Shown: piece after piece, positions 28,663 to 30,687 of the stretch | Numbering within the stretch: the stretch's first letter is position 1 | Layout of the letters: each line of letters starts with the position of its first letter | Source of the DNA: Clostridiales bacterium | GTDB lineage: Bacteria; Bacillota; Clostridia; Oscillospirales; CAG-272 | NCBI GenBank assembly: GCA_012840355.1 | Contig: DULN01000009.1 | Coordinates: 134,414 to 198,413, forward strand | Length of the DNA stretch: 64,000 bases | Direction: 5' to 3' | Notes under the pieces: model-generated | The model's input: only the letters and a program-made list of their open reading frames with translations | Databases searched by the model: none | What the model was told of the DNA's origin: nothing | Made by a program: the position numbers and the translations under genes

Positions 28663-30687
28663 TTATACTCTCGGGCTTTCAAGCAGCCATGCCGCGGTAT
28701 TGATATTGGAGATTATCCTACCTATAGCCTCGCTGAACTCGCTCGTGTTGTCAACGGTAAACGAGTAATACTCCGTCCTGCTCTGACCAACATTCAGCGC
28801 GTCTTGAATCATTTTAGACTCGTCTTGTTCCACGCTTCGCGCGTTTACATAAATATCGTAGAACGCCGAAATCGCATATTTCGGGTCCTGCTGGCTGAGC
28901 TCATAAATCTTTCCAAGGCAAAAAGCTGCGTAGTCTTTGGCAATTGTATAATTATCCATGCCGGGCTCATATTTCTGCGAAGCCGAAAGATGCGATCCCC
29001 TGAGCTGGGAGGTCGTCGGCACTGTGTATGAAAAGCTCTCCTTATTTTGGAGATAGAACGTCAGCTTTGTAGAATTGCTCGACAAGCTTACGGAGTGCCT
29101 TGACCTAAGGCTATTGTAGTCGGACCTCAAATTGAAGTTCCAGCTATTATAGCTTTGCGCGCTAGGTGTTTTGTAAAATACGTAGTGCGTACTGCCGTCA
29201 AGGTATAGGATGACATTGGGAGATTTGCTTGTGTCGAAATAGTAGTTGTCGACACCTCCAATCTCATCCGCGGTTATATATTTATACTTATAGGATTCGC
29301 TAAGCTTGTAATTTGATCTTTTTAAGTTATAGTCGTCAATTTTCCCCGCGATTATGGAGGGGTCTTTTACAGACCAAGCGTTTGTAAACCCGTCTGAGAT
29401 TTTTAAAATAACATTTGCCGCTCCCGGGTTCTTTTCCACGATTTTCTGAAGCTGCGAGTATGCGATTCTAAAGCCGTCGCCCAAATTCGTGCCGCCGGAC
29501 GGCGTGCGCCTTGCCAGATTGCCGGAGTAGTTTATTATGCTGCTATCCGAAATCTTTGCGGGGGCAACAGCGACCTTGCCGTATGTTTCAAATTCTACAA
29601 AACCGACATAGACGGTGTCGGTATATTGCTTAAAAGCATTTATAAACGCCCCGACATTATCGGCGAGAGCCTCTATCCGCCTCGGTTGCCGAGAAAAGCC
29701 TCCGCCCGCAGTGGGTATCCTCTCGTCCATGCTTCCCGAAAGGTCAAGCACGAAAATAACGTTGAGGTGCGGGACCGCATCAACTTTAAAACCGCCCTCG
29801 TGAAACGCGATCGCGGTCGCCGGATCCCTGCCCGAGCCGAGATGTACGGCCTGCAAAATGTTTACGCCGTTGAGCATCGTTTCAAGCTCGATGCTCCTGC
29901 CTTTGCCGATAACTTTACCATTATCGTCAAGATAAGTCACATTGATTATATACTCAAGCGAGCCAGAAACAATGTTGCCGCTTTTCGACTCGTTGGTCGT
30001 GTCGAATACAAGCTCGTAATGGGTGCTGTAGCCGAGCCGATCGTCGCACAGCTCGTAATCTATTATCGTAACAAGGAAATACCCGTCGCTCACATTACCG
30101 GCATAAACGTACTGGTCATACGGTTCCTTACCGAAGTTCCCGGATACCGAGAGGGCCTCCTGGTTTATCATTTCGGCTACATTATATGTTTGCTTCATCA
30201 CGTCAAGGCTTGTATAGTCATCGTCGCCATAAGTCTGGGAACCGATGTATTTGATATAGACCAGCGCTCTGAGGAACAACCCGATTTCATCTTTTTCCTC
30301 TTCGTCTATGTCGCCAAAGTACTTTGCAACCGTCTCGGGGCTGTTTTTTTGCTCAATTAGCCTATAGGGGATAAAGACATTGTCCATTACCCCTAGATAG
30401 CTCCAACCCTCAGTCAAATTTTTATAATTAAAGCTTTTTTGCGGGATAGTAAAGAGCGCGTTTGTAAACTTTATCGCATTGTTGATTCTTTCTGCAGTAT
30501 AGCGCGTCTGAGTTTCTTGGTTTACGAAATAGTCGGAAATCGAAGATATCGAGCCGGAGGAAAGAAACAGGCGGGCGCTAACGGCAAGTATTACTACAGA
30601 AAAAAATAGCACTATCAAAAGCTCAACTAGCGTAAACCCGCCTCGCCGTGCAAAACTCATGCCGGCATCTTTTTTTAGCTTTTTCAT
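28663..30687 (-). CDS. Giant type IV pilin-like protein carrying a von Willebrand factor A (MIDAS) module
   Basis: N-terminus MKKLKKDAGMSFARRGG/FTLVELLIVLFFSVVILAV. MIDAS motif DLSGS encoded at 29731-29745 (VIFVLDLSGSMDE). Downstream are GGTNLGDGF, ILKISDGFTN and a C-terminal vWA-like ending SEFSEAIGRIISNI. The ATG at 30687 is preferred over the GTG at 30708. Confidence 0.8.
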   Translation of the reverse strand: MKKLKKDAGMSFARRGGFTLVELLIVLFFSVVILAVSARLFLSSGSISSISDYFVNQETQTRYTAERINNAIKFTNALFTIPQKSFNYKNLTEGWSYLGVMDNVFIPYRLIEQKNSPETVAKYFGDIDEEEKDEIGLFLRALVYIKYIGSQTYGDDDYTSLDVMKQTYNVAEMINQEALSVSGNFGKEPYDQYVYAGNVSDGYFLVTIIDYELCDDRLGYSTHYELVFDTTNESKSGNIVSGSLEYIINVTYLDDNGKVIGKGRSIELETMLNGVNILQAVHLGSGRDPATAIAFHEGGFKVDAVPHLNVIFVLDLSGSMDERIPTAGGGFSRQPRRIEALADNVGAFINAFKQYTDTVYVGFVEFETYGKVAVAPAKISDSSIINYSGNLARRTPSGGTNLGDGFRIAYSQLQKIVEKNPGAANVILKISDGFTNAWSVKDPSIIAGKIDDYNLKRSNYKLSESYKYKYITADEIGGVDNYYFDTSKSPNVILYLDGSTHYVFYKTPSAQSYNSWNFNLRSDYNSLRSRHSVSLSSNSTKLTFYLQNKESFSYTVPTTSQLRGSHLSASQKYEPGMDNYTIAKDYAAFCLGKIYELSQQDPKYAISAFYDIYVNARSVEQDESKMIQDALNVGQSRTEYYSFTVDNTSEFSEAIGRIISNINTAAWLLESPRV

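Follow-up and report, generated by a model that had tools for sequence, protein, structure and literature searches.

Pilins that carry a von Willebrand factor A (vWA) module are among the widespread modular-pilin architectures (PMC8179133). In PilB of Streptococcus sanguinis, the metal ion-dependent adhesion site (MIDAS) of this module binds Mg/Mn, the isolated module binds host/external proteins, and the MIDAS is flanked by two arms, the first unremarkable and the second a four-stranded β-sheet reminiscent of RrgA (PMC8179133). The corresponding genes are ordered pilE-pilA-pilB-pilC, PilA lacks Glu5, and PilA, PilB and PilC have been proposed to form a tip complex (PilABC) with two roles, the priming of assembly and the display of two adhesive modules (PMC9934059). 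A limited literature search returned no description of a PilABC-type cassette outside S. sanguinis. Here we analyze a 64-kb stretch of a Clostridiales genome (contig DULN01000009.1 of assembly GCA_012840355.1; hereafter the window), in which four tightly packed minus-strand genes, A-B-C-D, form a comparable cassette. Its third member, gene C (28663..30687, coordinates including the stop codon; 674 amino acids (aa) from its ATG), reads as a PilB-family bimodular minor pilin.

Specifically, we consider it about 75% probable that the product of gene C is a modular minor pilin of the PilB family, belonging to a type IV pilus and likely acting as a tip-located, metal-dependent adhesin with an enlarged arm. 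This interpretation is carried by homology to PilB and, for the adjacent gene D, to PilC, by a conserved MIDAS, by the position and size gradation of the arm, by the conservation of the cassette, and by the association of that cassette with pilus machinery in relatives.

Gene C is homologous to PilB across both modules

The protein begins with MKKLKKDAGMSFARRGG|FTLVELLIVLFF, a class III (prepilin) signal peptide with the cleavage site written G|FTLVE, in which Gly-1, Phe+1 and Glu+5 are followed by a hydrophobic stretch of ~21 residues. The leader peptide, read from the sequence, spans residues 1-17 (30637..30687, minus strand, as are all features of the cassette) and ends in Gly-1, and the surroundings of the predicted site (...RRGG|FTLVELLIVLFF) would be consistent with cleavage after Gly17 by a prepilin peptidase. 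A GTG at 30708, 21 nt upstream of the ATG, would extend the protein to 681 aa; an earlier reading of the window from its letters and open reading frames (ORFs) alone, hereafter the sequence-only reading, numbered residues seven higher because this start adds seven residues. That reading had also assigned gene C a prepilin N-terminus, which the family bears out: Glu+5 is present in 18/18 members and Gly-1 in 16/18, one of the remaining two having Ala and the other being N-terminally truncated. The Pfam N_methyl family is moreover on record for several homologues.

Beyond the signal peptide lies a region of about 300 aa that the sequence-only reading had left as one of unknown fold. When a profile built from the alignment of the 18 gene C family members (A1) was compared with all sequences in the PDB, the best match was S. 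sanguinis PilB (7b7p, E=2.8e-29), with an alignment spanning the motif that follows α1 (F....S.F....LT..WSY.G), the strands that close the pilin module (L.T....LN..Q, AIA), the vWA module up to the DG of β4, and the extreme C-terminus (...W...GP, WFVSGP in PilB). Within the pilin module, gene C and PilB have in common the motifs F..P.SSF..LT..WSYLG, L.T.L..LN..Q and AIAF.

An AlphaFold2 model of gene C based on A1 reached a mean predicted local distance difference test (pLDDT) score of 75, with most 10-residue blocks between positions 310 and 630 at 80-93. It comprises a 54-residue α1 helix, a β-rich module up to residue 295 and a low-confidence linker, followed by β1-α1-β2-β3-α2-α3-β4 at 308-431 and α4-β5-α5-β6-α6 at 582-665. 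A Foldseek search of the PDB with the full-length model ranked PilB first (7ba2/7b7p, E=6e-19 to 4e-18), with a template modelling (TM) score of 0.60-0.62 normalised to PilB over ~630 aligned columns covering both modules. The next matches were the pilus tip adhesins SpaC, Mfa5, PitA and GBS104 (E=2e-9 to 5e-6), while the minimal vWA domains of CMG2 and TEM8 superpose over ~130 columns only, at 2.3-3.5 Å.

From these profile and Foldseek matches, the N-terminal region of gene C is therefore a PilB-type pilin module. It covers residues 18-307 (290 aa; 29767..30636), as delimited by the modelled secondary structure and the motifs common with PilB, and consists of the α1 helix (20-73), a β-sheet and a short low-confidence linker (296-307), with two lineage-specific insertions visible in A1 at about 108-135 and 150-200. 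The architecture, which the sequence-only reading had thought unusual for any pilin, is instead that of PilB, the homology running through both modules.

By its signal peptide, pilin module, MIDAS-containing vWA module and gene neighbourhood, gene C belongs at the sequence level to the PilB family. The likeness extends to Glu5, to the short linker, to extra sequence at two places in the vWA module that probably corresponds to arms 1 and 2, to the W...GP ending, and to the position of the gene between those of a small Glu5-less pilin and a large PilC-like pilin. The two proteins nonetheless differ markedly in size, with a mature gene C protein of ~657 aa vs 454 aa for PilB, partly through a pilin module that is ~90-100 aa longer by virtue of the two lineage-specific insertions. 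Sequence identity is likewise low, at ~22% for the best local BLASTP match to streptococcal relatives of a PilB fragment. The search with this fragment yielded mostly truncated streptococcal gene calls, among which P0021, covering the C-terminal half, was used for the comparisons below.

Two other groups of vWA-containing adhesins were considered. Some Gram-negative type IVa PilY1/PilC tip adhesins carry an N-terminal vWA domain, and thereby resemble gene C in placing a vWA module at a type IV pilus tip via a minor-pilin complex. PilY1 is no pilin, however, and is defined by a C-terminal β-propeller domain (IPR008707; PMC8179133). Pfam detects no such domain in gene C (E<=0.1), and the protein does have a prepilin N-terminus, so that assignment to the PilY1/PilC type was rejected. 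The vWA tip adhesins of sortase-assembled and type V pili (RrgA, GBS104, SpaC, PitA, Mfa5) present an arm-elaborated MIDAS vWA fold at the pilus tip as well, but they depend on a different assembly system and gene C has a prepilin N-terminus; a sortase-pilus adhesin was rejected given that gene C has no LPXTG motif and that Pfam detects only VWA and a sub-threshold prepilin N-terminal motif. This resemblance, confined to the fold, is convergent, as has been noted for PilB (PMC8179133).

A complete MIDAS in an interrupted vWA module

Two Pfam families pass their cut-offs in gene C, namely VWA_2 (34.8 bits vs 27) and VWA (PF00092, 28.1 bits vs 23.8). The PF00092 match ends at profile position 137/174, as expected of a domain that is interrupted. 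The MIDAS is complete, with D315-x-S-x-S319 (DLSGS, encoded at 29731-29745), T400 within GGTNLGDGF (codon 29488-29490) and D432 within ILKISDGFTN (codon 29392-29394). These elements fall in the N-terminal half of the module (residues 308-433, β1-β4; 29389..29766), defined by the Pfam matches and invariant columns, which also contains a 17-residue extra loop after DxSxS that is probably the counterpart of PilB arm 1. The C-terminal half, delimited by the modelled secondary structure (residues 582-665, α4, β5, α5, β6 and α6; 28693..28944), aligns with the C-terminal parts of both PilB and P0021, and its characteristic element SFTVDNTSEFSEAIGRIISNI begins at residue 641, 209 residues past D432. 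The sequence-only reading was thus accurate in describing a complete MIDAS vWA module, in placing all motifs, in locating the C-terminal element about 200 residues further on, and in proposing that a long segment splits the module; this segment corresponds to residues 434-581, between β4 and α4. The protein ends in a tail (residues 666-674; 28666..28692) that closes with ...AAWLLESPRV and carries the motif W-x-x-x-(G/S)-P, in which W667 and P672 are invariant. An extended form of this motif, W-x-x-x-(G/S)-P-(R/K)-x, is kept family-wide at the extreme C-terminus, and the last residues of PilB are WFVSGP.

Only 18 relatives of gene C were found among 5.8 billion protein clusters, all derived from metagenomes or metagenome-assembled genomes (MAGs); a profile search of a large protein collection with A1 found no relatives beyond those already known, and a scan of species-representative genomes identified 16 loci, from uncultured Clostridia/Bacillota. 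D315, S317, S319, T400 and D432 are, like Glu+5, invariant in 18/18 members, a pattern for which a chance origin is excluded. Outside the vWA module, the invariant columns of A1 are F79, T80, P82, S85, F86, L91, T92, W95, Y97, G99, N276, Q279, A292, A294, W667 and P672, and N276, Q279, A292 and A294 are common to this family and the streptococcal PilB relatives. In two Bianqueaceae MAG loci, the cassette contains two tandem vWA-pilin paralogues (L010, 8025-9269 and 10001-11080; L011, 5914-7173 and 7893-9050).

The insert is probably an enlarged arm

The segment between β4 and α4 (residues 434-581, 148 aa; 28945..29388) stands out in composition, with 36% Tyr, Ser and Asn vs 20% outside it (binomial p = 9e-6), and is the most AT-rich part within gene C (43% G+C). 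It is also the most divergent region of the protein, at 37-45% identity between closest relatives vs 60-85% elsewhere. In the full-length model it comprises a helix (445-456) followed by about six or seven short β-strands, these modelled elements spanning 437-562, and is predicted with pLDDT values of 84-92. When modelled alone with AlphaFold from a 9-sequence alignment, the same secondary-structure elements were obtained at a mean pLDDT of 48.6, and a Foldseek search of the PDB with this model gave no match below E=0.17 and no assignable fold.

A shuffled known domain was rejected as the source of the insert, since its profile retrieved four matches among 1.84 billion representative proteins, all from its own family and none from outside. 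Internal duplication was likewise ruled out: the insert shows neither an internal repeat nor similarity to the remaining protein (z about 1).

Comparison across the family instead points to an arm that was already present. In P0021, the streptococcal relative of PilB, DG and α4 are separated by 63 aa that occupy exactly the place of the 148-aa insert, and across the gene C family the lengths of this segment fall into a series of 48-72, 111-133 and 142-148 aa. Measured from the DG of β4 to β6, the interval is 108 aa in PilB, 98-119 aa in short family members (P0010-18), 166-187 aa in an intermediate clade (P0006-9) and 201-207 aa in the query clade (gene C and P0002-5), and a Y/F-Y-W/F-x core motif is common to all size classes. 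The gene C arm, with a helix and about six strands, also differs in make-up from PilB arm 2, a four-stranded sheet. We conclude that the insert, rather than being an independent domain grafted onto the module, is a graded, lineage-specific, 2-3-fold enlargement of what we take to be the arm 2 of PilB. This departs from the extra inserted domain of the sequence-only reading.

Both places at which PilB-type arms would be expected therefore carry extra sequence in gene C (17 residues after DxSxS and 148 between β4 and α4), a placement along the chain and not from coordinates. Since the longer segment starts two residues past the MIDAS residue D432, it should lie on the MIDAS face, where it would most probably determine ligand specificity by offering a fast-evolving binding surface of greater size or different shape.

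A PilABC-like cassette, detached from the pilus machinery

The three genes packed around gene C match this assignment to different degrees. Gene A (139 aa; 31309..31728; KCG|FTLTELLVV) encodes a major-pilin-like prepilin that passes the Pfam N_methyl cut-off at 31.2 bits, has sub-threshold N-terminal matches to GspG and ComGC, and has S. sanguinis PilE1 (8pfb, E=1.8e-6) as its second-best match among PDB sequences. Gene B (185 aa; 30717..31274; KNG|TILVY) has a degenerate prepilin-like N-terminus with an aromatic residue in place of Glu5, and all of its 11 orthologues (11/11) show Gly followed by xxxx(Y/F)V, i.e. lack Glu5. It falls into no family in Pfam or NCBIfam and is flanked by A and C in most of the related loci extending that far; its putative likeness to PilA lies in position, size and the missing Glu5 only. 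Gene D (455 aa, or 462 aa from an upstream TTG; 27294..28661; NG|YSLVE), whose ATG lies 2 nt beyond the gene C stop codon, encodes a modular pilin that passes the N_methyl cut-off (24.8 bits) and is a PilC homologue. Its family profile (A3) matched S. sanguinis PilC in the PDB (7oa7, E=2.8e-7) over the PilC C-terminal module; PilC was reached by the family profile only, the single sequence returning nothing useful, and no lectin domain was detected in gene D by Pfam.

The order A-B-C-D, with a major pilin, a small Glu5-less pilin, a vWA pilin and a large modular pilin with Glu5, hence parallels pilE-pilA-pilB-pilC, with D homologous to PilC and A resembling PilE1. The S. sanguinis locus differs in having two major-pilin genes, against one here, while gene B has no detectable PilA similarity and gene D no Pfam lectin domain. 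All four frames are intact, and within the clade the proteins are 39-61% identical and have kept all functional motifs. A promoter-like site (TTGACA-18-TATAAT; 31777..31806, minus strand) with a 12/12 consensus and a TG extension lies ~50 bp upstream of gene A; this match to the consensus, while nothing more than that, suggests a separate transcription unit for the four pilin genes. The G+C content of these genes is 42-47% vs 54% for the window, and in 4/4 lineages checked (the query, L020, L021 and L022) the cassette lies 6-15 points under most flanking genes; the same dip is seen in one lineage in which the cassette is contiguous to pilus machinery.

The cassette is kept in Clostridia/Bacillota bins and metagenome contigs, with most or all of it detected by tblastn at related loci. 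In the clade of the query, it follows a gene for EF-G and one for a transglutaminase-like lipoprotein, and, unlike that of S. sanguinis, it lies away from the pilus machinery. In a distant clade with short arms, the cassette closes complete pilus operons that encode T2SSE, T2SSF, a sigma factor, PilM, PilN and PilO, together with two ATPases, one MshE-type and one PilT-like; one of these operons also encodes a secretin. The sigma-70-family gene lies between T2SSF and PilM in these cassette-ending operons (L002, 337-1842 and 4218-4940; L022, 2235-2951), the operon of L002 also has a secretin-N-domain protein, and an SLH-domain protein is encoded nearby on a 205-kb contig carrying the same gene (also seen in L001). 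These observations suggest a diderm Bacillota host for the distant clade.

Proposed mechanism and alternative explanations

If gene C functions as a PilB-type tip adhesin, a prepilin peptidase encoded elsewhere would cut the protein after Gly17, and the α1 helix and enlarged pilin module would then place it in a priming complex with B (PilA-like) and D (PilC-like), capping a filament of which A, a small pilin, is the building block. The vWA module, presented at the pilus tip on its short flexible linker, would bind a ligand via a Mg2+/Mn2+-loaded MIDAS, next to which the enlarged, fast-evolving arm 2 would reshape the binding site. As to what is bound, the sequence-only reading had looked to host or extracellular-matrix ligands. 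These are unlikely, as the relatives, where their sources are named, come from a sediment metagenome and from environmental bins of uncultured Clostridia/Bacillota, and human fibrinogen or fibronectin, in particular, would not be expected ligands for an uncultured environmental Clostridia host. Because of these sources, and of the GH106, GH2 and sulfatase genes also encoded in the window, we speculate that the ligand is environmental rather than part of a host matrix.

Several points weigh against this interpretation. The N_methyl score of gene C itself, at 17.9 bits, is below the cut-off of 21.2, and its pilin module is modelled with moderate confidence only (pLDDT 40-87). Neither the gene B protein nor its family profile has a significant match in the PDB, and no PilA sequence similarity is detectable. 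The segment between DG and α4 is equated with PilB arm 2 by its spacing, and both the clustering of the MIDAS elements in three dimensions and the contact of the arm with the MIDAS face are predictions from vWA topology and the PilB match. Finally, a Pfam scan of 46 predicted proteins of the window (most ORFs >=120 aa) detected neither a prepilin peptidase nor an assembly ATPase or platform protein, and no pilus machinery was found <=10 kb from the cassette in the closest relatives; this machinery would then have to be encoded at another locus.

Two bolder readings are rather improbable. Arm 2 may be an autonomous new binding domain, restricted to this small clade, that partners the MIDAS in a two-part site for a non-proteinaceous environmental substrate (e.g. 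a plant or algal polysaccharide, of the kind degraded by this glycoside-hydrolase-rich organism), and the PilA/PilB/PilC-type complex may be an ancient cassette, widespread in Clostridia, that is separable from the machinery and self-regulated. As far as the arm is concerned, its graded lengths and the 63-aa segment of P0021 in the same place argue for the enlargement of an existing element instead.

A further, unlikely alternative gives gene C a mainly structural or priming role as a minor pilin, with a vWA module and arm that make contacts within the tip complex (e.g. with gene D) and bind no external ligand. This would agree with the finding that piliation of S. sanguinis requires each of pilA, pilB and pilC and with a model of PilABC as a single tip complex with a contact between PilC and PilB (PMC9934059), and B, C and D do occur together in most related loci extending that far. 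An invariant MIDAS beside a fast-diverging arm is nevertheless more readily reconciled with a binding site that faces outwards than with a conserved interface inside the complex, and it is the isolated vWA module of PilB that binds external proteins (PMC8179133). Such a priming role is compatible with that of a tip adhesin, and both may hold.

It is equally improbable that the cassette serves a secretion-type pseudopilus, similar to a Gram-positive type II-like system, in which the vWA module would engage cargo or cell-wall components. The N-terminal GspG and ComGC matches of gene A might be read in this way, as might a database source that calls one homologue 'pseudopilin PulG', the secretin in one relative's operon, and the requirement of Clostridium perfringens type IV pilus genes for the secretion of a vWA protein (PMC11580942). 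That protein, BsaC, is however a Sec-secreted cargo and no pilin, and the GspG score of gene A (37.5 bits) is far under the cut-off of 88.85; since gene C, too, showed only trace N-terminal matches (NCBIfam), membership of the Gsp pseudopilins (GspG-K) was rejected. The closest characterised homologues, PilB, PilC and PilE1, instead belong to a retractile adhesive pilus (PMC8179133), and PilT-like retraction ATPases are encoded in related operons.

Least probable is that gene C is no pilin at all and encodes a membrane-anchored vWA protein with a prepilin-resembling helix, or that the detached cassette is a decaying, non-functional remnant: the sub-threshold N_methyl score, the missing machinery in the window and near the closest relatives, and a G+C content under that of the flanks could be so explained, but not readily the invariant Glu+5 and nearly invariant Gly-1, the N_methyl matches of the flanking genes A and D, the four intact frames with functional motifs kept across the clade, the perfect promoter consensus, or the presence of the same cassette inside the pilus operons of relatives.

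The architecture of gene C is not in itself new, given that it is a clear PilB relative and that both the pilin-vWA combination and MIDAS-flanking arms have already been described. Two modest additions are a Clostridia clade with an arm 2 about 2-3 times larger and a longer pilin module, and a PilA-like/PilB/PilC-like cassette kept well beyond S. sanguinis and detached from its machinery in the query clade. They open no new mechanistic category and settle no long-standing question. Nevertheless, the recurrence in uncultured environmental Clostridia of a PilABC-type set characterised in one oral streptococcus supports modular minor pilins as a general route for fitting adhesins to type IV pili, and a MIDAS-adjacent loop whose length varies between 48 and 148 aa in a single family offers a natural series for testing how arms tune the ligand specificity of vWA adhesins.

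Other features of the window

Three sizeable minus-strand ORFs of the window, of 423 aa (1365-2636), 362 aa (48450-49538) and 335 aa (57207-58214), have no Pfam family at E<=1e-4. Downstream of the cassette, a 155-aa ORF (26747-27214, plus strand) with weak winged-helix-like Pfam hints only is convergent with gene D; it is kept in the same place in L004, broken into pieces of ~72-81% identity, which suggests a frameshift at that locus. The gene directly upstream of the cassette (31854-33044, minus strand) encodes a transglutaminase-core protein of 396 aa whose N-terminus (…SAIFGC) resembles that of a lipoprotein; it keeps this position in all query-clade members examined (L003, L004, L005, L019, L020 and L021) and has its own 12/12 consensus promoter-like site (33144-33116, minus strand). 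A second transglutaminase, a 1069-aa TgpA-like protein with a Transglut_core and a weak TgpA_N match (43094-46303, plus strand), is preceded by two ORFs at 40743-43030 and seems to have no connection with the pilin cassette.

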